42,036 nt of DNA from a virus. Shown piece by piece: positions 1 through 42,036 of the stretch. Location of the stretch: IMG/VR virus record IMGVR_UViG_3300017446_000010, positions 1-42,036 of that record. One strand, given 5' to 3'. Within the stretch, counting starts at the first letter, position 1, and every line of letters starts with the position of its first letter. The notes beneath the pieces were generated by a model. It did no database searches. It saw only the letters and a program-made list of their open reading frames with translations, and had not been told where the DNA came from. The position numbers were made by a program, and so were the translations under genes.

Positions 1-123
1 GCACGGCGAGTGGTTCGCCCCCACGCCCGAGATCGAAGCCGAGATTGCCCGCCTTAATGATCGGAGTGAAGCAGCATGAGCCGGCCAATCGATAAAAAGC
101 ACAACCTGTGGAAGCGAAAGCCA
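1..123. repeat. Terminal direct repeat copy 1 (identical to 41914-42036)
   Basis: Read directly: gcacggcgagtggttcgccc...gtggaagcgaaagcca occurs at both window ends. It spans the 3' end of the T5orf172 gene and the 5' end of the next ORF. Confidence 0.95.
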
Positions 124-246
124 CACGAGCCTGCCGAAAAGCCTAAACCTGAGACATGGATGTCGGCCAAACCTGCCAATGCAGGGCGTATTCTATCAGG
201 CGAGGAGCGGGCCGCGGCGCTCGCCAAGATGGGAATCAAGCCATGA
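76..246 (+). CDS. Hypothetical basic protein, 56 aa (below the ORF-track cutoff)
   Basis: The ATG at 76 overlaps the stop of the T5orf172 gene (ATGA). Its own stop overlaps the next ATG at 243. Sequence: MSRPIDKKHNLWKRKPHEPAEKPKPETWMS... Confidence 0.5.
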   Translation: MSRPIDKKHNLWKRKPHEPAEKPKPETWMSAKPANAGRILSGEERAAALAKMGIKP

Positions 247-536
247 ACAACGACATACATGATCGGCTGGTGCACACATTGTTATCGGCGGTCGGTTTGC
301 ACAATCCGGAGGAGAACGCTCCGATCATTTCAAATGCCATCTTGGCGTTTGCCTTGGGCAATATCATTGATGAGATGTTGATGATTCTGCCGGATGATCT
401 TGATCTATTCCGGATGCTCCGAGCGGCGGGGCGGAAAGACTCCGATAAGGCCAAGGCATTAGCGTCTCACTTCCTGCCAGCGCGCGAACGACTAACTGCT
501 ATCCGTGACAATCTTCCCTCTGAGCCGGTATACTGA
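243..536 (+). CDS. Hypothetical protein, 97 aa, visibly AT-richer than its surroundings
   Basis: In-frame ATG at 243 inside track ORF 156..536, with an ATGA overlap to the upstream ORF. Sequence: MNNDIHDRLVHTLLSAVGLHNPEE... Confidence 0.6.
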   Translation: MNNDIHDRLVHTLLSAVGLHNPEENAPIISNAILAFALGNIIDEMLMILPDDLDLFRMLRAAGRKDSDKAKALASHFLPARERLTAIRDNLPSEPVY

Positions 537-537
537 G

Positions 538-774
538 ATGGATCAGATGCTGACAAAAGCCGAAGCGCTGGCATTGGCGGCGATGCCTGCAGTGGGTCTC
601 GTCGCTGCTGGCAGAAAGGCTCCTTTCAACGGCCGGGTGATGTGGCGGCTACATGAAAAGGGATACGTGGAGACGCCTGACAGACTGGCAGTTCCGACCC
701 TCTATCGACGGACCAGCCTGATTTGTCGCAGCATGACCCCCGCCCGCCTTAACCAGATGGAGCAAGCAGCATGA
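538..774 (+). CDS. Hypothetical protein, 78 aa (possible winged-helix)
   Basis: ATG at 538, directly after the stop at 534-536. Part of track ORF 505..774. Sequence: MDQMLTKAEALALAAM...LHEKGYVETPDRL. Confidence 0.55.
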   Translation: MDQMLTKAEALALAAMPAVGLVAAGRKAPFNGRVMWRLHEKGYVETPDRLAVPTLYRRTSLICRSMTPARLNQMEQAA

Positions 775-1076
775 GCGATCTAGTGCGGGAATTATCCGAC
801 GCTGAAAATCGCGTTGACCAGTTGCGGCGTCAGATCGCCGCATCGGCCTGCCGAGAAGTCGGGTGCGACATGCAAAGCTATGGCGGGATGAATGCGGGCT
901 GTGGCGATGGCTGCGGCTGCTCTGTGCCGGTCAACGTTTGCATGCGCTGCGGCGATTGCGACTATGGCGATAACGAATGGGCGTCTCGAACACGCGAGGA
1001 ATGTGCGGCTCGCCAAATACCTGATCTCTCTACCCCCACCCTTCCCGCCCGCCTCACCGAGGGAGAAGTAGCGTGA
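771..1076 (+). CDS. Cysteine-rich protein, 101 aa, with N-terminal coiled coil
   Basis: ATGA overlap with the upstream ORF. Nine Cys: ACREVGC...AGCGDGCGCSVPVNVCMRCGDCDYG. Confidence 0.65.
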   Translation: MSDLVRELSDAENRVDQLRRQIAASACREVGCDMQSYGGMNAGCGDGCGCSVPVNVCMRCGDCDYGDNEWASRTREECAARQIPDLSTPTLPARLTEGEVA

Positions 1077-1258
1077 GCGATGATGACGAACCTGACGCTT
1101 ACGGGCGTGAGGGGCAGCGCGAAGACTGTTGGGCATGCAACGCCACCGGCATGGAATACAGCGAAACCTGTGTGGCGTGCGGTGGCTACGGTTGGGTTCG
1201 TGCCGATGTCCCCCTCACCCCATACGCCCGCCTTAATCAGGAAAGAGATGAAGTATGA
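1073..1258 (+). CDS. DnaJ-type (CxxCxGxG) zinc-finger protein, 61 aa
   Basis: GTG start overlapping the upstream stop (GTGA), with GGGAGAAG upstream. Motifs CWACNATG and CVACGGYG. Confidence 0.65.
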   Translation: MSDDDEPDAYGREGQREDCWACNATGMEYSETCVACGGYGWVRADVPLTPYARLNQERDEV

Positions 1259-1449
1259 GCGAGGACCAGCCTGAGACGGTCGAGATCATGCGCGATCACG
1301 CGATCAAGCTTATGAGCTTGGCGATGATGATCCGCGAGGGCGATATCGACTTTCGCGGCCATGAGGACGAGGACTGCGTATTGGCTCGAGCGCTGGTGGC
1401 CGAGCTAGCCGAGGAATGCGCCCTGCACTTTGGCGGGATGCCAGGCTAG
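1255..1449 (+). CDS. Hypothetical acidic protein, 64 aa
   Basis: ATGA overlap with the upstream ORF. Sequence: MSEDQPETVEIMRDHAIKLMSLAMMIREGD... Confidence 0.6.
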   Translation: MSEDQPETVEIMRDHAIKLMSLAMMIREGDIDFRGHEDEDCVLARALVAELAEECALHFGGMPG

Positions 1450-1580
1450 CGACGCGGCGAAGTTCGCACCTCCCCCGCGCCTTATTAAGCCCCAGCCCAA
1501 CGACTAGAAAGGTCGGCGGTCATATACTACCACCCCACGAATCGGGTTGCAATCGATCAGAACGAAGCGTGAATGCGGGA

Positions 1581-1790
1581 ATGTCCAAGCGCATCCCAGA
1601 CGCAGGCCATCCGTTGGTCGAAGAGTTCGCAGAGCATATGTATGTGACTACCCCTGTAGAGAGGTGGCCAGAACCGTGGAAGGGCCGCAGCGGGGTATGG
1701 GAGCGCGAGCCAGCAGATCTACGGCAGGCGTTTCGCGATCGGGCCCGGCGGTTTATGGCTGGGGATCTTAGCGTGGCGCCTTGGCTGTAG
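1581..1790 (+). CDS. Hypothetical protein, 69 aa
   Basis: Internal ATG of track ORF 1416..1790, preceded by GCGGGA. The N-terminal extension of the track ORF is Arg/Ser-rich junk. Sequence: MSKRIPDAGHPLVEEFAEHMYV... Confidence 0.55.
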   Translation: MSKRIPDAGHPLVEEFAEHMYVTTPVERWPEPWKGRSGVWEREPADLRQAFRDRARRFMAGDLSVAPWL

Positions 1791-2150
1791 TGGCGGTTGT
1801 GTAAAGGAATCGGCGTTTCGTTTACAGATGCGTGCCTACATGCAAACCGGCTTTGCACGAGAGGGCCGAGCCATGCAGTTAAGCAGCGGGCCCGGCCATA
1901 TCGATACCCGGTGATCAACCCGGGTAGCCTAGTAAGCCAGGACTTAAGTGCTGCGGCGACTTTCACCCGGCACCATTTACACCGAGCTAAGGCGACGGCG
2001 ATTATATGTCGTCGCAGCCCCACCCTATTGCCAGACTCGGACGAAACATGCTAGCCCGGTTTTCTAGTCGTGGCGGCGTTGATGGAAACGCATGATCGGA
2101 CCCCAGTCTTCTGCATCTGCGCTCGGGACGTCTAATAGGCGAGTAGAAGA

Positions 2151-2168
2151 GCCGGTATTAAGCCCGGC
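2151..2168 (-). terminator. Weak hairpin after the last lysis-operon gene
   Basis: GCCGG-N8-CCGGC, 7 nt beyond the stop at 2175, followed on the - strand by tcttct. No strong U-tract. Confidence 0.3.
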
Positions 2169-2174
2169 ACACGA

Positions 2175-4809: not shown

Positions 4810-6585
4810 CTATGAGACCAGCGCCGAGGCCATGACGGTCGCGGAGCCTGTGGTGCAGCGCATCTGGAGCGCACCGTCAGCCTTGCGAAATTCCGCCGCG
4901 ACGCCCGTGGGGTTGATCGGAGTGCCGAACAGCGCTGCGCTACCAACCGTCGACAAGACCGGCCATGCGTGTTGCGTGCCAATGCCGTCACCACCGCCGC
5001 TTGTCTGGATCCCGCCTACGGCAACCATTGCGACGCTCGACGCCGGTGTGAAGATCGTAACCCAGTCCGAGCCGACCGGCACCGCAACGTTACCGCTTGC
5101 GAAGCCCTGCGTCGCAGCCGTGCCGCCAGCGTTCAGGCTGGTCAGCGCCATGTTGCTGTTCGTTGCAGCGCCGTTGAACAGCGACTGCCCCGACACGCGC
5201 CGGTCATGCCCCATGCCGGTCATCAGGCCCGCAGCACCGACACCAGAGATGGTCGGGTGATCGCGATTGTACAGCAGCGCCAGCGGGTTGCTGACCAGCT
5301 TTTGCCCGCTGCCAACAATGCTGAAGCTTCCGCGCTGGAAGCCTACCCGGCTGAGCGCATCGGTGTTGGCGTAGAAGAACCCGGGCTGGTCGATAGCGTT
5401 CAGCGTGCCATCGATATGCGCGATCGTGCCGACACCCGAACCCGGCATTTCCCGCAGGGTGCACCATTCCGTAGTATGGAAACCCTCGCTACGAGGGCGG
5501 CTGATGTACAGGCCGATGACCGACAGCGCCTTGACGGCCGGGACATACATGTTCTCGAAGCGACAGTCCTCGAGCAGCCATGTGTCGCCGAACGCGATCT
5601 GGATCGAGGCGTCAACGTTGTAGCACCCGAACACTTTGGCACGGATGACGTTGTTCGTGTTTGTCGCGTTCGTCTGTCCGTAGGTTGCGGCCTCGGCACG
5701 GATGAAGCCATGCGTCATCGTGAAACCGCCAATCCCAGGCAGGTACCCGTCGCGGCAGTTGATCCAATCGGTGTAGATCGGAAGAAGATCGTAGCCCCAG
5801 ACGAGATTACGGTGCGTCTCGATGTTCTCGAACGTCGCGTAAGCGGTGTATTTGGACTTGTCGGCCGACCGGAAGCCCGTCGCGCCCGTCGTGCCGATTG
5901 CTGCCCGCATCGTCAGGTTGCGGAATACCAGATGCACCGCGATGTCCGTCGATGCCGACTGCAGGAACACGCATCCGCCATTGACTGCGACGATGAGCTC
6001 GGGGCCAAGGCACTCGCCGGATTTCTCGCCGACAATCTCCATGTTCGATACGACGGTGATACCGTTGACGATGTAGCCGGCGTCCGTCTTAGGAACCGTG
6101 ACACATTTACCCGTCGCGATCGCGGCATTGAACGCCGCGGTGTCGTCCGTGACGCCATCGCCCTTGGCACCGCCTGCAAAACGTGTGTCCGTTACGCTGA
6201 CCGTCTCGCGGAGCTTGCTGTCGACACTGCGCGTGCCGAAGCCGATCTGCTCTGCACCATCGGGGTTCGACAGCGTCGCAATGAAGCTGCTGAGGTTGTC
6301 CAGAACGCGCGGCTGAGAATAGACCACGGCACCGTTCGCCTGGCGCACACGGATCGAATAGGCGCCATCCACGAAGGGCTGGGCAGGCGTTCCGTTGTTG
6401 ACGACATAGCCAGCGACAGTTCGAAGCGGCTGCATGGCGGGGATCGTCATTGCCGCGTCCCAGAATACGTCCTTGGGATACAGCTCGGGATCCTGATCAG
6501 GTTGCCCGATATAGATCCGCGCGCCGTCGATCAGCCTCGAAAGCGTGTCGCTGAACAGCGGATACGGGTTGGTAATCGGGGTCAT
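4810..6585 (-). CDS. Tailspike, right-handed beta-helix (pectate-lyase-3 type) polysaccharide depolymerase
   Basis: VSVTDTRFAGGAKGDGVTDDTAAFNAAIATGK is the Pectate_lyase_3 N-terminal signature. 591 aa, located after the ejection genes as P22 gene 9 is. Confidence 0.8.
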   Translation of the reverse strand: MTPITNPYPLFSDTLSRLIDGARIYIGQPDQDPELYPKDVFWDAAMTIPAMQPLRTVAGYVVNNGTPAQPFVDGAYSIRVRQANGAVVYSQPRVLDNLSSFIATLSNPDGAEQIGFGTRSVDSKLRETVSVTDTRFAGGAKGDGVTDDTAAFNAAIATGKCVTVPKTDAGYIVNGITVVSNMEIVGEKSGECLGPELIVAVNGGCVFLQSASTDIAVHLVFRNLTMRAAIGTTGATGFRSADKSKYTAYATFENIETHRNLVWGYDLLPIYTDWINCRDGYLPGIGGFTMTHGFIRAEAATYGQTNATNTNNVIRAKVFGCYNVDASIQIAFGDTWLLEDCRFENMYVPAVKALSVIGLYISRPRSEGFHTTEWCTLREMPGSGVGTIAHIDGTLNAIDQPGFFYANTDALSRVGFQRGSFSIVGSGQKLVSNPLALLYNRDHPTISGVGAAGLMTGMGHDRRVSGQSLFNGAATNSNMALTSLNAGGTAATQGFASGNVAVPVGSDWVTIFTPASSVAMVAVGGIQTSGGGDGIGTQHAWPVLSTVGSAALFGTPINPTGVAAEFRKADGALQMRCTTGSATVMASALVS

Positions 6586-6613: not shown

Positions 6614-9559
6614 TCATGGCTGAAGCCCCTGCTGGTTGGCCTGGGGGTCGCCTGTATTCCCCTCGACGGGTGCGTTGCGGTCAGGGCCTTCGCTCGCTGC
6701 GAGACGTGTCGGGCTCACCGTGAACGCCTCCGCCAGTCGTCGTTGGAGGTCCAGAACCTCGTTCGCGATCGCAGGCTCAGCGCGGGCGATACGCGTTAGG
6801 CGTTTTACCAGAGCCGCGGACTTGGTTTCGTCCGGCTTGGACTTCATTGCCGCGCGCCCAACGACGGTCAGCGCGTCCTTGGTCCAAGCCCGCATGGCGG
6901 GATTCGCGAGAAACAACTTCCCTGAAAGGTATGCGGCCGGAACTGCCGCAGCTACTTCAGCTGCAGCGCCAACATTCCCATGCCAAAGCGCCGTGCCCAT
7001 CGTCGCAAGCAGGGCACCGGAGATGGTGTTCTTAGCCGTGTTGCTAAAATTGCGCGCCTTATCCAGCGTTCTGAGGCGGGCAGAATACTTTGCAATATCA
7101 GCGATTTGGTCGGTTGCCTCTTTGCCGAACACGACATTCCGGGCTTGCGGAGCCAAGTTGTCATAGTTCGTCAAGAAGGTATTGAACGACCATTCGGTGC
7201 CAAGGTCGTTCTGCTGCCCCGCCAGGGCGCGCCCCATGTCGTCAATGTGCGTGGCTGCGAAGGTGCTGCGCGCATTGCTAGGGAGGTTAAACCAAGTCTG
7301 CCGAAGGCGTGCGAGATTACCGCCCTTGCGCTGCATGTCTCCTACGACGCCGTTGTAGACGGCTTCCCCGCCTACATCCGTGTCATCGCGGTAAGATTTC
7401 AGCGGCTTCTTCAATGCGCCCTGTAGCGTGGCCGAGCGAGTACGCCAGAACGCATCAGCGTCCTTTTGCGCCTGGGCCGCAGACCCCGGCCCCGCACCTC
7501 GACCAGCAGCCAAGTCGGCTTGCTGAGCGGCAGTCATTACGTCATCTTCGATTGCCTGCTCGAGCTGACCTACGCGCCGCGTGATTGCGGGGGTGGCGCT
7601 GTTGCTCTTCGTGAGATTGCGCACGACGCCACGGATATGCGAAAGCGCCTCGGTTGCTTCACCGAGTGTTACAGGGCCATCTTCGGGTAGTGCGTTCTCC
7701 AAGGCACGAATAGCCGGATGCTCTCGCAAAGCTGCAAGGGCTGGGCTGGTTGGGAATGCTTGCGAGAACTGCGCAAACTGCGATCGGGTCTCTGCCAGAG
7801 GCACGGCGACGGACGCGCCGCCCATAAGGTTATCGCGCTGGCGGTAGAGCGCTCCGCCTTGCCGTGATGTCAGTCTCTCATATGCGCGTGCGCCTCGAGC
7901 CAAGCCAGCCCCAGCCTCTTGACGAGTGCTTACTGTCCCAATCTCTTCAGCAATTCCGCGAGCGGCGTTCCGCAAGCCCTCGGTCTCACCGTCGACCGCT
8001 TTGGAAACAGCCGTCATCCCGCCGGGCAGATTCCCTAGCCCCATCTGGACTGCCCGAGCTGCGAAACCTCCGTTCGTAGCTGGCGTCGCTGGGATGCCGT
8101 AATCTTGGCCGATCTCGGCGACGCTTCGCTCAGCCGTAGCGGCACCCTTAGCAGCAGCACGCGCACGCAAAGCTTGGGCGATGCGACTGCCCGCATAACC
8201 GGTAGCGCCGCCAGCAACGGCACCGACTGCGGCGCCAGTCACAGCCCCGGCTGCGCGGTCGACGATCCCGCCTTCTGCGTCACCGGCGCCGTAAGCGCCA
8301 CCAAGGCCCGCTGCCTCTTGAGCGGTGCGCGTGGCAAAGACACGCGCAGCAACGGCCTGTGCAGCTTCCTTAGTGGCCCCGCCGCGGATCGCTGCGATGC
8401 CCGCTGCTCGCGCCGCACCGGTCGCGCCGCTCGGGATGACGGCTCCAGCAAGAAGCTGGCCCCCAAGCCGAGGCAGGAAGTTGTTCTGTTCGTCGTAGGC
8501 GCTGACCGCGCGCTCTTTCTGAAGCGCCTTCTCGTAGTCGCCGCCATCGAGCACGGCGTTGAGCTCGTCGTCGAGCCCGACAACGGCCGGGATGCCACGC
8601 ACGAACGCGCGCGCACCCTCGGCAACACCGCCCTCGCCGCGGACGTCCGTGATGTCGACCTCGGGCTTGACGTATCCGAACTGCGGCGCAACGCCGGTCT
8701 TCTTGAATGCGTCGATTGCGTTCTGCGCTGCCTCAGGCGTGATCACTAGCCCGCGGTCGCCGATCCATTTGACGATGCTGTCGGGCGTAGCCGTCGGCAG
8801 GAACGCGGCGAACTGCGCTTCCTCGTCTGCCGTCAGGCGCTTTTCGTTGGCAGGCTTGGCGACATTGAACCCGATGTCGCCCCCGCCCTGTGGAGGCGTG
8901 CCGGGAGCGGGCGGCGTCGCGGTAGGACCCGCCGGGGGCGTGGCTGCTGCGCCTACTGCCCCCGCCGTGCCAGATGTCTGATCACCTCCTTCCGTCTGCG
9001 CCTTGGGGAAAAAGTTGGGATAGGTTTTCTTCAGGTCTTCGGTGACGGCCGAACCTGCTGAGTCGATTAACCCGCGGATAACTCGTTCGCGCGCCCGGGC
9101 CTTGGCCTCAATAACCTTGGGTCCCTCGCCAGGCTGCGGGAAATAGATGCGGTCTTGGGTCGCGATCTCGCTTTCGGGCAGATTGGCGCCAGAATCCTTA
9201 CGCAGCGTGGCGGCGATAAACTCTAGCTTGCTAGTGTCAGCAACCTGCTGGCTTTCGCTGTTGCCGCCAAGAAACTCGGGAACGGTGTTGGCGAGATCTG
9301 GAAAGTTGGCATTGAAAGCCTTCCCCGTTACCGATCGCGGACCAAGTCCCTGCTGCTGATAGGCTGCTGCGGCTCCAAGCGCGCGACGCAGGAAGGACGC
9401 AGCATTGGACTGCTCCACGCCTGCCGGCTTAGCGCCACTTGCTCCACCCGAACCGCTAGCGCCCTGCGCCACACGCCATTCGCCATCACGAAAGACGATC
9501 TTCCGACCGTCCTTGTGGGTTGCGGTTGCGCCTTCGGGGAAATCACCTTGTGCCATCAT
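6614..9559 (-). CDS. Large internal virion / DNA-ejection protein (about 981 aa)
   Basis: Position equals the P22 gp20/gp16 slot. Ala/Gly-rich with long helical stretches. The ATG at 9559 overlaps the upstream stop (TGATG); the track start at 9562 is TTG. Confidence 0.6.
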   Translation of the reverse strand: MMAQGDFPEGATATHKDGRKIVFRDGEWRVAQGASGSGGASGAKPAGVEQSNAASFLRRALGAAAAYQQQGLGPRSVTGKAFNANFPDLANTVPEFLGGNSESQQVADTSKLEFIAATLRKDSGANLPESEIATQDRIYFPQPGEGPKVIEAKARARERVIRGLIDSAGSAVTEDLKKTYPNFFPKAQTEGGDQTSGTAGAVGAAATPPAGPTATPPAPGTPPQGGGDIGFNVAKPANEKRLTADEEAQFAAFLPTATPDSIVKWIGDRGLVITPEAAQNAIDAFKKTGVAPQFGYVKPEVDITDVRGEGGVAEGARAFVRGIPAVVGLDDELNAVLDGGDYEKALQKERAVSAYDEQNNFLPRLGGQLLAGAVIPSGATGAARAAGIAAIRGGATKEAAQAVAARVFATRTAQEAAGLGGAYGAGDAEGGIVDRAAGAVTGAAVGAVAGGATGYAGSRIAQALRARAAAKGAATAERSVAEIGQDYGIPATPATNGGFAARAVQMGLGNLPGGMTAVSKAVDGETEGLRNAARGIAEEIGTVSTRQEAGAGLARGARAYERLTSRQGGALYRQRDNLMGGASVAVPLAETRSQFAQFSQAFPTSPALAALREHPAIRALENALPEDGPVTLGEATEALSHIRGVVRNLTKSNSATPAITRRVGQLEQAIEDDVMTAAQQADLAAGRGAGPGSAAQAQKDADAFWRTRSATLQGALKKPLKSYRDDTDVGGEAVYNGVVGDMQRKGGNLARLRQTWFNLPSNARSTFAATHIDDMGRALAGQQNDLGTEWSFNTFLTNYDNLAPQARNVVFGKEATDQIADIAKYSARLRTLDKARNFSNTAKNTISGALLATMGTALWHGNVGAAAEVAAAVPAAYLSGKLFLANPAMRAWTKDALTVVGRAAMKSKPDETKSAALVKRLTRIARAEPAIANEVLDLQRRLAEAFTVSPTRLAASEGPDRNAPVEGNTGDPQANQQGLQP

Positions 9560-10323
9560 CAATCCAAGATGAAACCGGCAGGCAGTTTAGACGGCTTGCC
9601 GCCACCTTTGCCGCCACCAGATGACTTACGATCCGCCCGTGCGTCATCACGCGCGCGCCCGGCGATGGCTGCCGTCGTTGCTCGCTCGCTGTTCACAACA
9701 CGACGCTCGGTCAGATCCATGCGCCGTTCCTCGCGGGCATCCTTGGCCGCGTCGCGCTGTGCCTTGTCGCTGTAGCCCAGCGCGTCGAGCACCGGCCCCG
9801 CGTCTTCGCCCAGCGTGCCACCAATCACGATGCCTGCGATCGCCTTCGCCTTGACGAGGTCGCCGGACTTGATTGCAGCCAGCGCGGCGTCGGTAACTTC
9901 CGTGCTCTCGCCAGTCTCGGCAAGTGCGGCGCGGCGCTGCTCGAGATCCTTGACGGCTTGGCCGGTCAACCCGGCGTTGAGAAACCCACCGAGCCGCATC
10001 GCCGCGTTGACGTTGCGCGTCTTCTGCGCGCCGGTCTGCTGGTCGGCCAGCGCCTTGAGCGCCGTTGCCTGCTCTGGGTGCTTCAGGAACAGGTCCTGGA
10101 TGCCCTGCGACGTCGGGTTGGTCATGTACCCGCCGATGTCGGCCTGCCAGGCAGCGTCCTTCGCCGCCTTCGCCTCCGTTTCCTGACGGGCGAGATCGAC
10201 GCGCTGCTGCTGGATCTCGGTCTGCGCATCGATCGCGTGGTTCTGCCGACGTATCTGCAAGCCCTGCATCAGCGGATTGAAGTCCGGCTGTGTGAGCATG
10301 GCGGAGTAGTTAATCGGGTCCAT
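9559..10323 (-). CDS. Internal virion / ejection protein, 254 aa
   Basis: Syntenic with the P22 ejection genes. Helical and charged, with C-terminus KSSGGGKGGGKPSKLPAGF. Confidence 0.5.
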   Translation of the reverse strand: MDPINYSAMLTQPDFNPLMQGLQIRRQNHAIDAQTEIQQQRVDLARQETEAKAAKDAAWQADIGGYMTNPTSQGIQDLFLKHPEQATALKALADQQTGAQKTRNVNAAMRLGGFLNAGLTGQAVKDLEQRRAALAETGESTEVTDAALAAIKSGDLVKAKAIAGIVIGGTLGEDAGPVLDALGYSDKAQRDAAKDAREERRMDLTERRVVNSERATTAAIAGRARDDARADRKSSGGGKGGGKPSKLPAGFILD

Positions 10324-15938: not shown

Positions 15939-18536
15939 TCATGCTGTGACCCCGGCGTTAGTCGTGCCATCAAGGTGGTAAAGACCGATAAGGCCCGTCT
16001 CAGTGCCTGCGTATGGAGCCGTGGGCGGTGTGAACCCTGCCGTGTACTTGGCGATGTTCCAGACCGCAACCTCATCAACATTGGCGGTGCTCTGGAACGT
16101 CGCCGGGGTCGTCGAGCTGTAATTGCGGATGCCGAACTTGTCGTTCGCGGTCATCAGTGCGCGACCGCTGCTGCTAGTACCGACTGCCACGCCGTCCACA
16201 TATAGAACGCCGCCTGTGTCAGCAGTGACAACCATCGCAATATGGCGGCGCACGCCATCGGTCACGACCGGGTTTGTGCCCTCGGCCGAGTTCGTTGACG
16301 TTCCGCAATAACGCGTAGTCGAGGTGGCTGAGTTATACGCACCGACGATACGCCCGAACGTGTTGACGCCGATCCACCCTGCGCGACCCTGACCAGCGAT
16401 GATGCCTAGATTGGCCGGGATCGCTGCGATGTCGATCCATGCCTCGATCGTGAACGTCTGAAGGTTGTTGAGCAGATCGGTGGTAGCAGGCGAGAAGCCG
16501 TAGCCCCCCGTCATCTTCTGCCCAAATCCACTCGCCCCCGAAGCGTAAGTAGCACTGGTCGGCGACAGGTCTGGACCAATCTTGGTGCCGGGCGTCGGGG
16601 TTGGAGTCGGTGTAGGCGTGCCGCTCGGCGCTGCCACCTGCAATGCGGCCAGGGACGCACGAAGCTGACGGCCCCGCGTGATGCCATCGCCATCGGTCCG
16701 GTTATCGTAAATCACATTGGTCTGGCCGTCTGCACTCGGATCGATCGGCGCGAACGCGTAGACGTCGAGAGCCTGACTATCGGCCGGAGCCGAGGCAAGG
16801 CGCAACGTAATGCTAGTCGCATTGACGATAATCGGCGTAGTGCTGTCGAGCGCAAGAGGGCTGGTCATCGCACCCGACCCGAAGACCGAGAAGCGGTTAG
16901 CAGGTGCGCCGACAGCAGAAACGGCCGTTGCCCCGGATGGGAAGGCGAGCGGCATAACAATATCCGTCGAACCGGATGCGCGAGTGCCCGACGCCAGCGA
17001 TGGCCCCATGTCATCCCCAGACAGGCCAAGGCCGGGACGTGCAGCACGAAAGAAGTGACCGGCGAGCGTTACCGAACCAAGCTGCGACTGATGCACGCCA
17101 TCGTAGAGGTCGAGATCATTGGCATTGATCCGCTGCGCGCCGTTGATCGTTGCCCAATTGGCCATTGCATTGCGGATCGCGAGGATCTGGGCGGGCGTGC
17201 CCCACAACGTGCTGCTGATGTTAGGGATGCTGCCGAGAAGCTTGTCGTAATTGGCACCGCGCGCGGCATTATGCGCCGTGATGTCGGCGAACAGGCTGTC
17301 GAGATTGCTCTGATAGGTTGCGGTCGCCATGCCGTTCTTGGCGTCGGTATGCCCCTGCATCCAGATGAAGGTTTCGAAACCTCCCGCCGCGTCCAGCGCA
17401 TCGCGCAAGCCCTGGTTGTCCGCACCACCGGGGATGAACCGCGTGATGCTCTGCGAACCGCGTGCATAGCCCACCAAGAAGCAGTTGACGCCGGTCGCGG
17501 CGATCCGCTTTGTGAGATAGTCCGCGGCGAATGCGCTGTTGTATGGTCCCGTGCCTTCGGCAATGCGCCCCCACGTTGGCAGTGCGGCAGCAGTCGCGGA
17601 CGGCTCAAGCGGTTGTACGAAGCACGACGCATTAGCCGGTATCGACGCCCCTACAGACGCGATGGTGACGGTTGCCTGAGAATCGCGCGCCAGCAGCATC
17701 CGGGTAGCGAGAGACTGGCCCGACACGCCGGTCGAGCTGCCCATGCCTACCAACGCTGTACCGTTTTGCCATGTCGTTCCATCGCCCGAAAGGTCGAGAT
17801 AGAACCAGCCAAGGCGCGCATCTACGCCGGCAATAGGCACGATCTGCGCGCCCGTTGCGCTGGCGGTTGCCGCAACCCAAGACGACTGAAGGATCGTCGA
17901 GCCGTCCGCAGCACGCACCCGAGCATATACGCTGCCAATCGTCGAAACATTGAGGGATACTGGGATGGTGCCCCGCCCCTTTGCCTGCCCGCCATCAGTC
18001 ATCGTCGTGCGCTGATACCCTCGGTAATCCGGGGATAGCTGCGTCATCGTAAACGCGCTTGGTGTCGGCGTAGGCGTAGGCGTAGGCGTAGGCGGCACGA
18101 TAACCCCGCCACTGGTGATGACCGCCGGAAGGACGGTATTCCGAACGATCCCCATGAAGCTCTCCGTAAGTGTTATGTCCGGCTCGCCTGCCGCAGTGAA
18201 TGTGCCTGTGACGGTGTTGCCAACGACGGTCAGCGTGGTGCCGTCGGATGCCGTCGCGGTGATCGTTGATCCCGACGTGGCGTTGCCGATCGTTGCCGAG
18301 AATGGCACGTCGGGTTCGAACTCAAGTGAGGACAAGGTCAGCGCACGCAACGACGGACCACCGCCAGACAGCGATTGATCATATGCCACCTGAGCGAGGT
18401 TCTGCGTCAGGGCGTACGCGCTTTCGAGCGCCGCGAAACGGGTCTCAAGAGCGACGATGCGGCCCAGCGCCACCTCCAGATTGTATTCTGGCAGGTTCGG
18501 GAACCCATAGTCGTTGATGCTGCTGCGACGGCGCAT
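15939..18536 (-). CDS. Tail fibre / side spike with a SASA-type carbohydrate esterase domain and a C-terminal LamG (concanavalin-like) lectin domain
   Basis: GVSGQSLA and FIWMQGHTDA resemble the sialate O-acetylesterase GQSN and WxQGE motifs. C-terminus FTIEAWI...RHIAMVV...LYVDGV...VDEVAVW is Laminin_G_3-like. There are two (PT)n linkers. Confidence 0.7.
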   Translation of the reverse strand: MRRRSSINDYGFPNLPEYNLEVALGRIVALETRFAALESAYALTQNLAQVAYDQSLSGGGPSLRALTLSSLEFEPDVPFSATIGNATSGSTITATASDGTTLTVVGNTVTGTFTAAGEPDITLTESFMGIVRNTVLPAVITSGGVIVPPTPTPTPTPTPSAFTMTQLSPDYRGYQRTTMTDGGQAKGRGTIPVSLNVSTIGSVYARVRAADGSTILQSSWVAATASATGAQIVPIAGVDARLGWFYLDLSGDGTTWQNGTALVGMGSSTGVSGQSLATRMLLARDSQATVTIASVGASIPANASCFVQPLEPSATAAALPTWGRIAEGTGPYNSAFAADYLTKRIAATGVNCFLVGYARGSQSITRFIPGGADNQGLRDALDAAGGFETFIWMQGHTDAKNGMATATYQSNLDSLFADITAHNAARGANYDKLLGSIPNISSTLWGTPAQILAIRNAMANWATINGAQRINANDLDLYDGVHQSQLGSVTLAGHFFRAARPGLGLSGDDMGPSLASGTRASGSTDIVMPLAFPSGATAVSAVGAPANRFSVFGSGAMTSPLALDSTTPIIVNATSITLRLASAPADSQALDVYAFAPIDPSADGQTNVIYDNRTDGDGITRGRQLRASLAALQVAAPSGTPTPTPTPTPGTKIGPDLSPTSATYASGASGFGQKMTGGYGFSPATTDLLNNLQTFTIEAWIDIAAIPANLGIIAGQGRAGWIGVNTFGRIVGAYNSATSTTRYCGTSTNSAEGTNPVVTDGVRRHIAMVVTADTGGVLYVDGVAVGTSSSGRALMTANDKFGIRNYSSTTPATFQSTANVDEVAVWNIAKYTAGFTPPTAPYAGTETGLIGLYHLDGTTNAGVTA
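16591..16620. repeat. Imperfect GGNGTN hexamer repeat encoding the second (TP)n linker of the fibre
   Basis: ggcgtc ggggtt ggagtc ggtgta ggcgtg; encodes TPTPTPTPTP on the - strand. Confidence 0.8.
18061..18093. repeat. Tandem GGCGTA x4 hexamer repeat encoding the first (PT)n linker of the fibre
   Basis: ggtgtc ggcgta ggcgta ggcgta ggcgta ggc read directly; encodes PTPTPTPTPTP on the - strand. Confidence 0.9.
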
Positions 18537-25574: not shown

Positions 25575-26921
25575 CTAGCGCCTGAAGCCGCCCGTCATAG
25601 ATGGCACTGAGACCGCCGCTGGCGCCTTCTTGCGCGGCGCGACGATCGCAGGAAACAGCTCCGCCAATGCCCAGATCAGCGCGTCGGCTCGGTTGGGACT
25701 GTCGCCGCCCAAATAGCCGTTCGTGCTGAAGGCTGTCAGCTCCTCCTCAAGCTCGACGAACTTGCCGACGTGGCGGACCTTACCCTGCTCGTACAGTGAC
25801 GAGAATGGCTCTGCGCGGACTGTCTTGCCCCGTGACGCTGTGACCTGCTTAAACGGTGTCCTGCTCCGCGCCGCCTGGATGGTCGCATTGACCATTGCGC
25901 CGCCATAATTGATCTCGCCGACGACAATGTCTGCCTCGTGCCGATCAAACGCGCCGGTTGCCACCCTGCCCCATGTCAGCGGGCCAGCCTTCACCGTGCA
26001 ATCCTCCATGACGTAGGCGTTCCCATCGGTGCCCAGCCCCGCGACGACGATGCCGATCGCGTCGTTATCCGCGTTGTCGACATCACCCGATCCCGAGGGG
26101 TCGACTGCCACGACGATGCGGACCATGTCCGGCACGATGCCGTCGATCACCCGCCAGCGCTCGATTACCTCGTCAGTGAACAGCGCGCCCGGCGTAGCGT
26201 CACCGAACTCACCATCGAGAAAGCGCCGGCGCATGCGGGCCGACATACCCTGCAGCGTTTCAAGATAGTCGTCTGCGATGTTCGCCTGGTTGTCGCCCGG
26301 GTTAATGCGGAACCACGCGTACGACTCCGGATTGCGCAATGGCTCACGGGTTTCCGGATCTACCTTCTGAATGAACTGCCGATATGACCAGTGTGCCTTC
26401 GATGGCGGGTTCTCGTCGTAGTATATCCGCGGCTTAAGCGGCTTGGCGGTCAGGTGTTCGCCTACCTGCTCAACGCTTTGCGCCAACCGGGTGGTAACGA
26501 GGTTGATGCTCGCCAATGGGATCTGGCTGCACTCGTTCAGGTAGAGGGTGACGAACTCCATTCCGAGAATCTTTTCCGCCCTCTCCTTGTCGTCTAGCCC
26601 GCCGAACCAGATCTGCGCGCCGTTCTCGAACGTCACATACCAGTCGGTCTTGTCCATCTTCGACACTACGCCGGGAAAGGCGATCTGCATCACCTTCAGG
26701 AACGTGTCGTTGATGATCGACGCCTTTACCGAGTTGAACCGGTAACGGAATATCCCGTGCCTTGAATTGGGCGCCTTCAGAGCGCGCGCAACCACATTGC
26801 GCACCAGCAGGAACGTCTTACCCGATCGGGATCCACCAAGCAGCATGATGTGCTTAGCGGCACCGGCGAGGATAACCTGCGCCTCCTCCTGCTTGGGCGT
26901 GAACCTAAATGTCGTCGTCAT
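25575..26921 (-). CDS. terL: Terminase large subunit
   Basis: Walker A LLGGSRSGKTF. Nuclease-half acidic motifs (VAVDPSGSG, GIVVAG). 448 aa, directly after TerS. Confidence 0.9.
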   Translation of the reverse strand: MTTTFRFTPKQEEAQVILAGAAKHIMLLGGSRSGKTFLLVRNVVARALKAPNSRHGIFRYRFNSVKASIINDTFLKVMQIAFPGVVSKMDKTDWYVTFENGAQIWFGGLDDKERAEKILGMEFVTLYLNECSQIPLASINLVTTRLAQSVEQVGEHLTAKPLKPRIYYDENPPSKAHWSYRQFIQKVDPETREPLRNPESYAWFRINPGDNQANIADDYLETLQGMSARMRRRFLDGEFGDATPGALFTDEVIERWRVIDGIVPDMVRIVVAVDPSGSGDVDNADNDAIGIVVAGLGTDGNAYVMEDCTVKAGPLTWGRVATGAFDRHEADIVVGEINYGGAMVNATIQAARSRTPFKQVTASRGKTVRAEPFSSLYEQGKVRHVGKFVELEEELTAFSTNGYLGGDSPNRADALIWALAELFPAIVAPRKKAPAAVSVPSMTGGFRR

Positions 26922-31974: not shown

Positions 31975-32156
31975 GCCCGCCACCCCAGCTTGGCGACATC
32001 GCCGCGAGCAACACAGCCACGAAGGGTGTCGAGCATGGCGGTACGCTTGGCCTTCTGAATGCGGGCTTCATCGCTAAGGATGCGGGCTGCTTCCGAAGGT
32101 GTCGGAGCGGCCGGCGTGCGGTTGATACCGAACGGCCAGAATGGGATGCCGCTCAT
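31971..32156 (-). CDS. Hypothetical protein, 61 aa
   Basis: ATGA overlaps at both ends. Confidence 0.5.
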   Translation of the reverse strand: MSGIPFWPFGINRTPAAPTPSEAARILSDEARIQKAKRTAMLDTLRGCVARGDVAKLGWRA

Positions 32157-32584
32157 GCTGCGACGCTCCCGCGCATCTGCACGACCTTGCCGTCCAGCAG
32201 AGCGCGCTCGCAGTCGGCGATCTCGCGACCAGCAGGGCTATCAGCCTGATGTGCCTTGCCCTTCGCTGCGAGATAGTCGCGGCACACGGTCTCGACCTCG
32301 TCGTGGTCGATCGCTTCCGGCGCGCGGACGATCTGGAAGCCCGGGGGGAGCATCAGCGACAGCAGGTCGGACGGCAGCGCCTCGGTAGCGAGCAGCCGGT
32401 ACAGAGCGGCAACCGACATGACGGCAGGCTGGGCGTGTGCGTCTTCCGGGAAGTAGGAAAGCACGGTCGACGAGGAATCCCATCCCCCGTCCAGCTGCAC
32501 TGCTTTGATCGAAATACCGCGGCGGTTCATCTCGCGGCGAACCAGCTTCTGCCGGTCGCGCACGATATTGGTGGCATCAGCCAT
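32153..32584 (-). CDS. Hypothetical early protein, 143 aa (possible DNA-binding regulator)
   Basis: N-terminus IVRDRQKLVRREMNRRGISIKAVQLDGG is HTH-like. Early-left operon context. Confidence 0.45.
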   Translation of the reverse strand: MADATNIVRDRQKLVRREMNRRGISIKAVQLDGGWDSSSTVLSYFPEDAHAQPAVMSVAALYRLLATEALPSDLLSLMLPPGFQIVRAPEAIDHDEVETVCRDYLAAKGKAHQADSPAGREIADCERALLDGKVVQMRGSVAA

Positions 32585-35484: not shown

Positions 35485-35756
35485 GCCCAGCTGAGATCAA
35501 CGCAATCGGCGTCATGCTCCAGAGCATCCGCCATCACGACGAGAACCTCCTCACCTTGGCGTTCACCGCGCACGCACCGAATGCCGAGAGCTTCGACGGC
35601 AGCGTGTCCGTCACCGTCGCCAACCACGTCGACACCGCCACCAGCGAGAGCGTCACGCTCGACTGCGCGCTTCACATGGCCCGCGCCAAACTGCGGAACA
35701 TGGCTGAGGCCCGGGTCAAGGCTGCGGCTGACATGAAGAAGGATAAGGCAGCATGA
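35481..35756 (+). CDS. Hypothetical protein, 91 aa
   Basis: ATGA overlaps at both ends. The C-terminus KAAADMKKDKAA repeats the tail of the preceding ORF. Confidence 0.55.
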   Translation: MSPAEINAIGVMLQSIRHHDENLLTLAFTAHAPNAESFDGSVSVTVANHVDTATSESVTLDCALHMARAKLRNMAEARVKAAADMKKDKAA

Positions 35757-36445
35757 CTGCAGTCTACAAAGCAATTGCCGCTGTCTCAGGCGAAATGGCC
35801 AAGGACGGCATTGGCAAGGATCGCCGCAACAGCCAGCAGGGCTATAACTTCCGCGGCATCGACGACGTGTTTAACGCCTTGTCGCCGCTGCTGGCCAAGC
35901 ACGGTCTGTGCATCCTGCCGCGCTGCATCAATCGTTCGCAGGTCGAGCGCACCAGCGCGAAGGGCGGTGCGCTGTTCTACACGACTGTCGATGTCGAGTT
36001 TGACTTCGTGGCTGCGGAGGACGGATCTAAGCACACGATCCGCGTCCCAGGCGAGGCGATGGACAGTGCCGACAAGTCGACCAACAAGGCGATGTCGGCC
36101 GCGTACAAGTATGCGGCCATGCAGGCCTTTTGCATCCCCACCGAAGGCGACAACGATGCCGACAGCACGACGCACGAAGTTGCGCCACGTCAGCAGGCAC
36201 CGCGGCACGATCCGATCGAGCTGATCACCGATGCGCAGCGCGATCAGATGCTGGCGCTGGCTATGACCAAGAACATTGACGCTCGCACCATCTGTGAGAC
36301 CGGCAAGATCGCCTCGATAAAGGAGCTCCCGTCCGCTCGCTTTCAGGGGCTGATGGACTGGCTCGGCAAGCAGGCAAAGCGCGAGGTCGGCACTTCCACT
36401 GGAGCGCCGGCCAGCGATCTCGTTGACGACGAAATCCCCTACTAG
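35753..36445 (+). CDS. erf: ERF-family single-strand annealing protein
   Basis: GYNFRGIDDVFNALSPLLAKHGL...KSTNKAMSAAYKYAAMQAFCIPT matches the Erf superfamily core (GY.Y..l.dv...v.p.L.khGi ... qa.gSa.tY.rRY). Confidence 0.8.
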   Translation: MTAVYKAIAAVSGEMAKDGIGKDRRNSQQGYNFRGIDDVFNALSPLLAKHGLCILPRCINRSQVERTSAKGGALFYTTVDVEFDFVAAEDGSKHTIRVPGEAMDSADKSTNKAMSAAYKYAAMQAFCIPTEGDNDADSTTHEVAPRQQAPRHDPIELITDAQRDQMLALAMTKNIDARTICETGKIASIKELPSARFQGLMDWLGKQAKREVGTSTGAPASDLVDDEIPY

Positions 36446-40094: not shown

Positions 40095-40450
40095 CCTATG
40101 CCCATGAGCGGGCCAAGACGCCGGCACAGTGGTGCGCCGACTTCGCGGCCCGCGGCATCGATATGTCCGAGCGCACGCTGCGAGCTCGAGCCCGAAGCAT
40201 CGGATCCTATTTTACGCTCGGCAAGGCGATGCTGATCACGCCCGAGCAGATCGACCATATTCTAGAGGACGGTGCATGCCACTCGAACCCTACCCCCGCG
40301 GCAAGACGTGGTGGGTCAAAGGCCGGATCCAATTCAACGGCCGCGATGTTACCGGCTACCTCCGCGAAAGCACTGGCGCATCTACAGAAGCTGGCGCGCG
40401 GGAATGGATCGCAGAACGGCAGGCGCGGGAAGAGCGCCGCCAGGTCCTAG
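40091..40450 (+). CDS. Excisionase-like HTH protein; the ORF runs 175 nt into the integrase gene in another frame
   Basis: TPAQWCADFAARGIDMSERTLRARARSIGSYFTLGKAMLITPEQIDHIL resembles HTH_17/Xis. Lies immediately upstream of int. Confidence 0.4.
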   Translation: MTYAHERAKTPAQWCADFAARGIDMSERTLRARARSIGSYFTLGKAMLITPEQIDHILEDGACHSNPTPAARRGGSKAGSNSTAAMLPATSAKALAHLQKLARGNGSQNGRRGKSAARS

Positions 40451-41385
40451 GTCATGACGAAGCCGACGAGCGCGACTTCACGTTCAACGATGCCGTCGTG
40501 CTGTACCCCGCGACCGAGCAGACCGCGAAATACCTGATGCCGATCGTCGAGCGCATAGGCTCGCTGCCGGTGAAGAAGATCACGGCCAAGATGATCCGCG
40601 ATCTGGGCGCCTCGCTCTATCCGAAGAACTCCGCCGACACGTGGCGTCGCTGGGTCATCGCCCCTGCCCGTGCCGTCATCAACAATGCGAACGAGCTGGG
40701 CAAGTGCCCGCCGATCCGGATCACCGGCTACGACAAGGCAGAGCGGGTGCGGCAGGACCGCAACCGCGGCAAGGTCAGTCGTAAGCCGAAGGTGCCGAGC
40801 GATTGGTCTTGGATCCTCGCTTTCCGTGCCAAGGCGTCGAAGCGACACGGTGCGCTCGCCCTCTTCATGTTCACCACCGGTGCGCGCGTTGGTCAGGCTA
40901 CCGCCATGCACCCGAGCGCGATCGACCTTGACGCTGGTACGGCTATCATTCCGGGCGCAAAGGGCCATGAGGATCGCAAGGTGCAGCTTATGCCCGAGCT
41001 GATCGAGGAGCTGCGCAAGCTACCGGCGAAGATTCCGCGCGGCTGGGACCGGCGCTACGACGAGAACAGGCGCGTGTTCGGCTGGGCAAGCAAGGACGGC
41101 CCCCGCAAGGGCTGGATGACCGCCTGCGCCAAAGCCGGCATTCCCTACCTGCCCCCGCACTCTGCCGGCCGTCATGGTTTTGGGCAGGAGATGCGAGTGC
41201 GCCAAGGCGTCGATACCAAGTCGATCGAGAGCGTCGGTGGATGGTCCGCAAAGGGCGGGATGATCGACAAGATTTACACCCATGCCGAAGACAGCGACTC
41301 GAAGATTTTGGAAGCGCTTCGTACAGGTTACGTACAAGCCCAAGAAAAGACTGGCGTCAAACCCGCAGAAAAGGTAGATAAGTAG
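40276..41385 (+). CDS. int: Tyrosine integrase
   Basis: The ATG at 40276 follows GAGGA. Catalytic residues are in TGARVGQ (R), HSAGRHGF (HxxR) and KIYTH (Y). Confidence 0.9.
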   Translation: MPLEPYPRGKTWWVKGRIQFNGRDVTGYLRESTGASTEAGAREWIAERQAREERRQVLGHDEADERDFTFNDAVVLYPATEQTAKYLMPIVERIGSLPVKKITAKMIRDLGASLYPKNSADTWRRWVIAPARAVINNANELGKCPPIRITGYDKAERVRQDRNRGKVSRKPKVPSDWSWILAFRAKASKRHGALALFMFTTGARVGQATAMHPSAIDLDAGTAIIPGAKGHEDRKVQLMPELIEELRKLPAKIPRGWDRRYDENRRVFGWASKDGPRKGWMTACAKAGIPYLPPHSAGRHGFGQEMRVRQGVDTKSIESVGGWSAKGGMIDKIYTHAEDSDSKILEALRTGYVQAQEKTGVKPAEKVDK

Positions 41386-41447: not shown

Positions 41448-41448
41448 C

Positions 41449-41463
41449 AAACCCTAGGGTTTT
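41449..41463 (+). terminator. Perfect palindrome AAACCCTAGGGTTT plus T, directly after the tRNA CCA end
   Basis: Read directly. Would form a short hairpin followed by Ts. Could terminate the tRNA reconstituted after integration. Confidence 0.35.
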
Positions 41464-41578
41464 CGCCCCCAACCTCGCGCCATCCCTGCACTTTGATGCA
41501 GCCGTTTACGCGCACAAAACCGGAACGCGCGTACAACCGCCGTACAGGTGATTTGCGCCCCGCGAATCGGGTGGCGTC

Positions 41579-41992
41579 ATGATCGTTGACCAAGCGCCCC
41601 CAGCACCTGTGGCATTCGCTCACCCGGATGGCCGCCATTGGTTCCGCATCGAGTATATCGACGGCATGTGGGAGGCCATCTGGCCCGAGGAAGGGCCACG
41701 GCGAGAATACTCCGACCGCATCCCAAAGGTGTCGCAGGTCTATTTCATTGGCCCTAAAAGGGGCCCGGTAAAGATCGGTGAGGCCACATGCCCACTGCAC
41801 CGATTGCGTTCGCTTCAGTGCGGCAACCACGAACAGCTGTATGTGCTGGCGACGTGTTCTGGCGGTCAAGCAGCTGAGCGTGAGTACCATCGCCGCTTCG
41901 CCAGCGCGCGCCTGCACGGCGAGTGGTTCGCCCCCACGCCCGAGATCGAAGCCGAGATTGCCCGCCTTAATGATCGGAGTGAAGCAGCATGA
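41579..41992 (+). CDS. T5orf172 / MUG113 (GIY-YIG-superfamily) domain protein
   Basis: VYFIGPKRGPVKIGEATCPLHRLRSLQCGNHEQLYVLA...EREYHRRFASARLHGEWF matches the T5orf172 consensus. Confidence 0.75.
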   Translation: MIVDQAPPAPVAFAHPDGRHWFRIEYIDGMWEAIWPEEGPRREYSDRIPKVSQVYFIGPKRGPVKIGEATCPLHRLRSLQCGNHEQLYVLATCSGGQAAEREYHRRFASARLHGEWFAPTPEIEAEIARLNDRSEAA

Positions 41993-42036
41993 GCCGGCCA
42001 ATCGATAAAAAGCACAACCTGTGGAAGCGAAAGCCA
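41914..42036. repeat. Terminal direct repeat copy 2 (identical to 1-123)
   Basis: Same 123-nt string as the window start. Confidence 0.95.

Follow-up and report, generated by a model that had tools for sequence, protein, structure and literature searches.

The gene array described here has its nearest analogue in logic in the hyperplastic regions of T4-type phages, where clusters of small non-essential ORFans are split by a repeated short motif, termed PeSL, that bounds insertions, deletions and replacements among closely related phages and at the same time serves as a signal for expression (Arbiol et al. 2010, PMC2839356; Comeau et al. 2014, PMC4122927). The array itself belongs to the IMG/VR virus record IMGVR_UViG_3300017446_000010, which was analysed over its whole length of 42,036 nucleotides (nt) and is called the window in the following. 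It is a block of eight small genes that begins with a MUG113/T5orf172 gene, i.e. a putative nuclease gene, just beyond the phage attachment site attP, and it is likewise divided by short repeated linkers. PeSL consists, however, of a sigma-70 promoter and a stem-loop terminator and is found in virulent myoviruses, whereas the linkers are stop/Shine-Dalgarno/start junctions without promoter or hairpin, derive in part from the 3' end of the nuclease gene, keep a fixed order (J4 before J5 before J6), and lie beside attP in what is, by its gene content, a temperate P22-like podovirus.

Comparable with respect to position are the free-standing T5orf172/GIY-YIG homing endonucleases (Barth, Dunham & Seed 2023, PMC10448857). 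T5orf172 is a subfamily of GIY-YIG whose nuclease activity depends on a conserved glutamate, and T5orf172 genes are regarded as putative homing endonucleases that are sited at the boundaries of genetic exchange (PMC10448857). This description fits the position of P1, the head gene of the block: also here, a T5orf172 gene with a variable second domain separates the conserved int-attP segment from a recombining one, being placed exactly at their border. The genes of that study, however, are near essential genes, flank islands of more than 10 kb and belong to lytic phages (ICP1-, T5- and T4-like), whereas the window contains one copy of a putative nuclease gene beside a temperate attP, followed by an array of tiny cassettes of about 2 kb.

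Non-essential accessory regions are also represented by the b region with the ea genes and the nin region of lambda, and by the ea genes and the gtr locus of P22, where the gtr conversion genes fill the attP-adjacent slot. The block shares with the lambdoid and P22-type regions a position next to attP or, within the leftward early operon, distal to int/att, a content of small, dispensable and mosaic genes, and, as proposed here, an exchange that can be promoted by Rad52-like recombinases (PMC3945230). It differs in that gtr-like membrane proteins are absent and in that its boundaries are discrete, repeated and near-invariant linkers instead of incidental homology. Integrons resemble the block with their ordered promoterless single-gene cassettes beside a recombinase and an attachment site, a 3' recombination-associated element and empty slots, but here attC hairpins are missing, the linkers are specific for a position and not for a cassette, exchange is presumed to be homologous, and the adjacent recombinase is a phage tyrosine integrase aimed at a tRNA gene. 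Morons, finally, are likewise compositionally foreign extra genes in a non-essential slot, but classical morons possess their own promoter and terminator, whereas the genes of the block are chained and no such signals were detected. The block is neither an integron nor a classical moron, and it is not a known defence system.

The eight open reading frames (ORFs) of the block, all of which were found where an earlier note on this DNA had placed them, are the following (aa, amino acids; GC3, GC content at third codon positions). The L-numbers, L001 to L158, are labels of the compared loci, which are related phages, prophages, chromosomes and contigs.

41579..41992, plus strand: P1, 137 aa, MUG113/T5orf172 protein of the GIY-YIG superfamily according to Pfam, head gene of the array
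76..246, plus strand: P2, 56 aa, basic, Lys/Pro-rich ORFan, from gene calls
243..536, plus strand: P3, 97 aa, gene with the lowest GC content of the block (52%)
538..774, plus strand: P4, 78 aa (75 aa if the start is at 547), ending in the MUG113-derived ARLNQMEQAA
771..1076, plus strand: P5, 101 aa, N-terminal helix and Cys-rich domain, last 14 aa encoded by J5
1073..1258, plus strand: P6, 61 aa, single zinc knuckle motif (CxxCxxxG...CxxCxGxG), tail encoded by J6
1255..1449, plus strand: P7, 64 aa, acidic, native-like GC3 of 0.80, 88-92% nt identity in L020, L023 and L027
1581..1790, plus strand: P8, 69 aa, last gene of the plus-strand arm, 91-97% aa identity in L020, L021, L022 and L027

Four linkers of 35-53 nt each are found at the junctions of these genes. 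Every linker contains the stop codon of the upstream gene, a Shine-Dalgarno sequence, and the start of the next gene with Met-Ser codons.

41960..41994 (47-81 in the duplicated end), plus strand: J1, 3' end of the P1 gene, ATGA and first P2 codons, belonging to the 35-nt repeat family D1
741..776, plus strand: J4, 36 nt, 100% identical to the MUG113 3' end of L017 and L024, one mismatch in L021 and L023
1032..1079, plus strand: J5, 48 nt, 100% identical in L017, L021 and L024, two mismatches in L023
1211..1263, plus strand: J6, 53 nt, 0-1 mismatch in L020, L021, L022, L023 and L027

The essential observation is that the linkers are conserved between related phages and the genes between them are not. 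J4, J5 and J6 follow each other in the same order and with 0-2 mismatches in L017, L021, L023 and L024, and scans of sequence collections with the linker pattern found J6 also in L020, L022 and L027. Pairwise identity is 96-98% for J4 to J6 (on average 97.8% for J4 in 5 phages, 97.5% for J5, and 96.1% for J6 in 8 phages), as compared to 88-93% for the shared cassettes P7 and P8 and about 76% for the MUG113 3' region. The distance from J4 to J5 varies between the phages (291, 422, 680, 388 and 743 nt), as does that from J5 to J6 (179, 369, 77 and 337 nt), with two slots being nearly empty, and the genes within the linker-bounded slots are unrelated between phages; the slot of P6 is nearly empty in L021 and L024. 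When the window is compared with L017, only three segments inside the array align, and all of them are junctions (741-776, 36 nt, 100%; 1032-1079, 48 nt, 100%; 1212-1258, 47 nt, 98%).

The surroundings of the array are conserved as well. The order integrase, attP, MUG113, small plus-strand genes and converging lysis cassette is common to the window, L014/L015 and L017/L018, and it is seen as far as the contigs reach in L016 and L024. The MUG113 head gene occupies the same position in the window, L014, L016, L017 and L024, which shows T5orf172 genes next to attP to be recurrent in Sphingomonas phages. The P1 homologue of L014/L015 is 66% identical, and the genes downstream of MUG113 differ in every array; in L021 and L023, MUG113 is replaced by other genes and the downstream linkers are the same. 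The 50 proteins of 11 arrays fall into 33 families, 24 of which are singletons, and the only recurrent families are MUG113 (5 arrays), P7 (4), P8 (4) and one 76-aa family (3). The cassettes assort independently: P7 and P8 occur without P5 and P6 in L020, L021, L022 and L023, P6 occurs without P5 and behind a different gene in L027, and one Lar-like cassette is found at J5 in L017 but at J6 in L022. P3 and P4 form a travelling pair in L039, where the C-terminal 60 aa of P3 are 78% identical and a P4 homologue again comes next. The architecture of the array, the conservation of the linkers, the non-homology of the cassettes and their assortment can thus be read from the compared sequences themselves.

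The origin of the linkers can be traced in part. A family alignment revealed ...PEIEAEIARLN..(E/S)(Q/E)AA as the conserved C-terminus of MUG113 proteins, and because this ARLN..-type tail is conserved across the family, J1 and J4 represent the native MUG113 3' end. The tail is also found as an in-frame remnant on four unrelated proteins, namely P4 and proteins of 160 aa in L021, 74 aa in L023 and 64 aa in L039. J5 and J6 constitute a related subfamily, which has GCCCGCCTYA in common with J1 and J4 and shares a C-rich 5' part; GCCCGCCTYA has five unique sites in the window, four of them inside the block. A 35-nt direct repeat is present at three junctions of the window (47-81, 742-776 and 1226-1260), with a related fourth copy at 1032-1079, and the linker pattern has three unique matches in the window, where 0.02 would be expected. 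In L017, L023 and L024, the stop of the upstream genes coincides exactly with the 5' edge of J5 or J6, and the linker is therefore a unit at the DNA level and not just a shared peptide tail. The strict linker pattern had 0 matches in species-representative genomes. A fifth linker type, ..CGTCACGCTCTC..TCGAAAGGATCCGATGTATGACC, encodes ..RHAL.LSKGSDV and bounds more cassettes distal to J6 in sister arrays (L020:12672-13097, L022:1425-1893 and L023:1980-2162); it is absent from the window.

The block continues the plus-strand early operon, which runs from about 32.6 kb via erf and int to attP, in the circular form of the phage. The relevant features at its end are these:

35753..36445, plus strand: single-strand annealing recombinase of the ERF family (PF04404)
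40276..41385, plus strand: tyrosine integrase (Pfam Phage_integrase), last gene of the early operon before attP, 92% identical in L014
41397..41447, plus strand: core of attP, whose 51 nt agree without mismatch with the 3' end of tRNA-Arg(CCG) in Sphingomonas and Sphingomonadales genomes
41448..41578, plus strand: right arm of attP and leader of the block, with a tandem CGTACAR pair at 41530/41541 and the palindrome CTGCACTTTGATGCAG

We think, with a probability of about 65%, that the early operon ends in a hypervariable part, the block, in which cassettes are exchanged homologously at the linkers with ERF as likely agent. Behind a conserved MUG113/T5orf172 head gene just past attP, small cassettes would assort independently between related phages. 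The first role of the linkers would be to couple translation along the chain, and the second would be to provide near-perfect homology patches, at which co-infecting or resident relatives could swap, lose or gain the intervening cassettes. With 35-53 nt, the linkers would have about the homology length that annealing recombinases need. Erf-type Rad52-like recombinases produce mosaics between diverged phage sequences (PMC3945230), and the phage's own ERF would be the most likely agent of exchange, possibly helped by breaks that the nuclease makes. The cargo would be small proteins that act individually and are not subunits of one system. Because the block continues the early operon, and by analogy to the lambda b region and ea genes, the cargo probably serves early accessory, host-takeover or counter-defence functions. 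We infer in this way the recombination enzyme, the timing of expression and each function of the cargo. A mechanism of this kind would account for the way in which temperate phages maintain a stock of tiny accessory genes that can be renewed rapidly. The linkers have the length of homology that an annealing recombinase requires, are better conserved than any surrounding gene and have their beginning in the 3' end of a gene for a putative homing nuclease; with these features, it would become directly testable in a simple system what holds mosaic joints to the boundaries of genes, which is a question of long standing.

Several points weigh against this reading. No exchange event was observed directly, and the evidence is comparative and comes from about nine distinct metagenomic contigs. 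The 3' half of the linkers, GGAG..AGCAGCATGAGC, is generic, as it was found behind unrelated genes in at least 119 diverse IMG/VR contigs and also at other junctions of the window; specificity for the lineage lies only in the 5' half and in the identity over the full length. The identity of the linkers could instead come from selection on translation initiation or on a protein-binding site, and the four unrelated genes that are fused in frame at J4 hint that the tail peptide or the ATGA coupling itself is selected. Also, expression in the lysogen would be possible, as the block would directly follow tRNA-Arg there.

Among the alternatives, the most probable one is that P1 is an active homing-type endonuclease that cuts relatives at or near the head junction or the linkers, and that the turnover of the cassettes is driven by repair on a co-infecting genome, where the conversion tracts would end in linkers. 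This is compatible with homologous exchange at the linkers, but as the driving force we consider it unlikely. The T5orf172 assignment of the earlier note is well founded, since P1 scores above the Pfam cut-offs for MUG113 (6e-10, 40 bits, cut-off 22.3) as well as for T5orf172 (28.4, cut-off 20), and it matches phrog_8130 with 1.4e-18. The N-terminal part of the protein (residues 1-50) is a beta domain and is variable, whereas the nuclease-like domain that follows (53-120) is conserved, and Y55, K65-I66-G67, R75, E100, H104 and E115-W116-F117 are invariant in 36 P1 homologues. Y55, R75 and E100 would be the catalytic-type residues if roles are mapped according to PMC10448857, and their invariance speaks for an active nuclease. 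So does the predicted fold: the AlphaFold2 (AF2) model has a predicted local distance difference test score (pLDDT) of 89.9, finds 59 viral MUG113/T5orf172/GIY-YIG matches in BFVD (E<=1e-3), and superimposes on the GIY-YIG endonuclease of phage Heath with a template modelling score of 0.83 and a root-mean-square deviation of 1.7. Against the PDB, however, Foldseek gave only non-significant echoes (1zg2, 1ywl), and a profile search gave no match. The N-terminal 50-aa beta domain is confidently modelled, lacks an annotation and differs between close relatives, and such a swapping of N-terminal domains between close MUG113 domains is also seen in homing endonucleases. Furthermore, the source of J1 and J4 is the 3' end of the P1 gene itself, the head gene of L021, which lacks MUG113, carries the same remnant tail, L023 contains an HNH_3 endonuclease gene just upstream of the head position, and T5orf172 genes have been proposed as homing endonucleases at exchange boundaries (PMC10448857). 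On the other hand, L021 and L023 are arrays that have linkers and no MUG113, the ERF of the phage is in principle sufficient for the exchange, and T5orf172 domains have also been domesticated as repressors or fused to replication proteins.

A P1-related domain is also found in L009:11384-11965 (minus strand), where a 193-aa fusion protein combines Arm-DNA-bind_3 with a MUG113 domain that is 41% identical to P1; the fusion gene overlaps the start of the integrase gene at the prophage end. Scans of IMG/VR with the single proteins P1 and P5 recovered almost nothing.

In an extended form of the nuclease idea, which we regard as decidedly unlikely, the MUG113 nuclease and the linkers, two of which copy its 3' end, would constitute an active cassette-exchange platform of temperate phages and thus a homology-based functional analogue of an integron. 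At the head junction or in the linkers, the nuclease would break the DNA of relatives. The linkers would act as arms of recombineering length for ERF, and small genes for counter-defence or host takeover could be acquired, exchanged and lost in individual slots without giving up their translational coupling.

It has also to be considered that the linkers might be conserved for expression, be it as initiation and coupling modules, as sites for a regulator or as a C-terminal tag (..ARLNxxxxAA), with the mosaic as a mere by-product. Indeed, each linker contains a Shine-Dalgarno sequence, a stop and a start, the 3' half serves as a junction in very diverse phages, and the J4 tail is fused in frame to four unrelated genes. 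The RNA of the linkers does not fold better than shuffled controls (z -0.2 to +1.3), which is consistent with open ribosome-binding sites. This explanation appears rather improbable to us, because it does not account for a near-identity over 36-53 nt where homologous genes differ by 8-40%, for the sharp 5' edges at which unrelated genes end, or for the occurrence of the same cassette on different linkers, and because in L017, L023 and L024 translation of the upstream gene does not extend into the tail at J5 or J6. The folding at shuffle level also ruled out that the linkers contain attC-like or regulatory hairpins.

The junctions of the block agree exactly with their earlier description, with five overlaps (ATGA four times, GTGA once) and one 1-nt gap among seven junctions. 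P1 and P2 overlap by the ATGA at 41989-41992 (76-79 in the duplicated end), P2 and P3 by that at 243-246, P3 and P4 are separated by 1 nt (TGA 534-536, ATG 538), the overlaps of P4/P5, P5/P6 and P6/P7 are ATGA at 771-774, GTGA at 1073-1076 and ATGA at 1255-1258, and the gap between P7 and P8 is 131 nt. An independent gene caller, whose calls together with Pfam annotations were taken from the source contig in the metagenome assembly (ENA ERZ27250342 k141_364237), found seven of the eight ORFs and missed 1581-1790, which is nevertheless real in view of its high protein identity in four other phages. As overlaps of 4 nt are common throughout the phage, translational chaining alone is not special. 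The junction GCAGCATGA, in which ..Ala-Ala-stop overlaps Met, has eight distinct sites in the window by pattern count (71-79, 728-736, 766-774, 2907-2915, 26840-26848, 32153-32161, 35748-35756 and 37921-37929) and nine matches including one in the duplicated end, with 0.69 expected. The longer junction GGAGNRAGCAGCATGAGC was detected in at least 119 very diverse IMG/VR contigs (L041-L158), and judged by these occurrences GCAGCATGA/GGAGNRAGCAGCATGAGC is a widely reused translational-coupling junction. A MUG113-specific nature of the full junction GGAG..AGCAGCATGAGC was considered and rejected on the basis of its contigs mentioned above.

With respect to expression signals, a sequence scan of 1-2400 gave three promoter-like matches, each inside an ORF and none at a linker, and no terminator-like site was detected at any linker. 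The scan of 41200-42036 gave no promoter-like site, and the stretch from attP to P1 (41448-41578) contained neither a sigma-70-like promoter nor a plus-strand terminator. The composition of the block deviates from the rest of the genome: GC3 is 0.58-0.67, P7 excepted (0.80), as compared to 0.74-0.83 in core genes, and ORF 243-536 is indeed AT-richer, with 52% GC versus 57-62% in its neighbours.

Most proteins of the cargo have few relatives. P2 has no family match, and its only occurrences were in two copies of the present phage, L001 and L002; P3 has 6 homologues besides itself in 5.8e9 proteins, and P4 has 2 real homologues besides itself in 1.84e9 representatives. P5, in contrast, has 54 other homologues, and the present analysis defines it as a new small Cys-rich family with a confident predicted fold and no solved relative, since neither a fold search nor a profile search gave a significant match in the PDB. 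Its nine cysteines and helical N-terminal part, as noticed before, were found again: C27, C44, C48, C50, C57, C60, C63 and C78 are conserved along with a Cys or His at position 32, the family pattern is C-x16-C-x3-C-x-C-x6-C-x2-C-x2-C-x14-C plus this Cys/His position, and the N-terminal helix is confident in the AF2 model (pLDDT 82.8). A zinc or Fe-S cofactor is possible. P6 had been described as a DnaJ-type zinc finger; the CxxCxxxG and CxxCxGxG motifs are there, but Anti-TRAP (20.7 bits, cut-off 32) and DnaJ_CXXCXGXG (17.8, cut-off 32.7) are both below the Pfam cut-offs, so that P6 resembles a single zinc knuckle of DnaJ/Anti-TRAP type and is not a demonstrated member.

The genomic contexts of the P5 family are instructive, as homologues occur in 8 other contexts and no neighbour from the window is adjacent in any of them. 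These contexts include Sphingomonas chromosomes and prophages (L004, L006, L007 and L008), an ISL3-flanked site (L011-L013) and early operons upstream of an integrase. The closest homologue, with 91% identity, belongs to the early operon of the L009 prophage, and another one is found in the 171-kb Rhizobium phage RHph_I1_18 amid a string of small hypothetical early-type genes. When all eight proteins were searched by tBLASTn against the P5 contexts, the other seven were nowhere present in the same operon, and the sole match in the fetched flanks was the opposite-strand MUG113 fusion beside the integrase of L009. Directly after the P5 homologue on the Sphingomonas chromosome L004, a TnpB-like gene (OrfB_IS605 and Cas12f1-like_TNB) is located at 8252-9835, and another one is found inside the sister early operon of L017 (5053-6174).

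Pfam searches with 20 sister cassettes returned only a sub-threshold Lar, plus HNH_3, DUF551 and DUF3307. A candidate relationship of the 216-aa cassette of L021 as a copy of the 248-aa PPCQ protein of the window was discarded (BLASTP E=0.88). A homologue of Tad3 (anti-Thoeris, PF25185) is encoded in L007:9052-9318, in the equivalent slot between prophage end and converging lysis cassette; L007 is a Sphingomonas prophage that also carries a P5 homologue. The Lar-like genes for restriction alleviation, which are just below the Pfam cut-off, and the Tad3-like gene are the few annotatable genes of sister slots; they point to counter-defence in the course of infection and not to defence.

The earlier note had taken the block for a single coupled unit and for a possible novel defence or anti-defence system. 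The coupling is upheld with respect to translational chaining but not with respect to function: PADLOC-DB v2 gave 0 matches (E<=1) for all eight proteins, there is no conserved co-occurrence, and the trio of T5orf172, Cys-rich and zinc-finger proteins is not a conserved system because its homologues occur singly and without conserved synteny. That the eight genes form one operon for defence, exclusion or conversion, which is expressed in the lysogen and in which these three proteins cooperate, is therefore highly improbable, in spite of the attP-side slot, which would become the prophage end and follow tRNA-Arg directly and with equal orientation, the foreign GC3, the tight chaining, the nuclease domain as a plausible effector and the gtr conversion genes in the corresponding slot of P22, as the trio never co-occurs (P5 in its 8 contexts without adjacent P1 or P6, P6 without P5), 24 of the 33 cassette families are singletons, a promoter-like site upstream of P1 was not found in the scans, a P5 homologue lies among early-type genes of the Rhizobium phage, and the annotatable sister cassettes are Lar-like and Tad3-like. 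The proposed exchange at linkers replaces an unsupported eight-gene defence operon with a testable evolutionary mechanism.

The placement of the block next to attP was confirmed by the tRNA-Arg(CCG) match at 41397-41447. This core is 100% identical in L030, a Sphingomonas metagenome-assembled genome, and in L035, and 98% identical in Sphingomonas sp. Leaf339 and S. mollis, and Rfam shows a sub-threshold tRNA match at its position. In the integrated state, the rebuilt tRNA-Arg gene would have the block immediately on its 3' side, in the same orientation and at the extreme end of the prophage. Conservation of the right arm (41448-41578) towards L014/L015 is about 88%. The window contains 13 CGTACAR heptamers, where 5 are expected, and these are candidate arm-type sites of the integrase; tandem pairs with a distance of 11 nt are located on either side of the attP core (41320-41337 and 41530-41547), and two further sites are found upstream of int (39959 and 40040). 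In L014:7751-7971 and L015:1620-1840, which correspond to 41380-41600 of the window, the T-stem has compensatory changes, with ACTGG..CCAGT for GCAGA..TCTGC, and the L014/L015 phage therefore targets another tRNA-Arg variant or another host.

Bases 1-123 of the window are an exact repeat of 41914-42036, so that the element is circular with 41,913 bp. It encodes P22-type portal (3.5e-126), coat (1e-88) and gp10-like stabilisation proteins and a large terminase, and a GH108 endolysin, the ERF annealing recombinase and the tyrosine integrase are annotated on the source contig; this set of genes is the reason to classify it as a P22-like temperate podovirus. Both the homologues of one block protein in Sphingomonas genomes and the attP core point to a Sphingomonas host. 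No DNA-level match to window positions 1-2000 was found among GenBank phages.

On its distal side, the array is followed by one further conserved feature:

1791..2174, no strand: non-coding zone where array and lysis cassette converge, conserved in L017, L021, L022 and L023

Rfam contained no match for this zone or for the block, the sole echo being the tRNA fragment of attP. Between the converging arms, five phages have in common a conserved ATGCTAGCCCGGTTTTCTAGTCGTGGC and a second hairpin (2047-2091) with a few covarying pairs, and this element could be a bidirectional terminator or a small RNA. Elsewhere in the window, two large tail-associated proteins are encoded on the minus strand (15939-18536 and 4810-6585), which contain SASA acetylesterase and Laminin_G_3 domains and a weak pectate-lyase-like match; with these carbohydrate-active domains, they are likely receptor-binding or depolymerase proteins.

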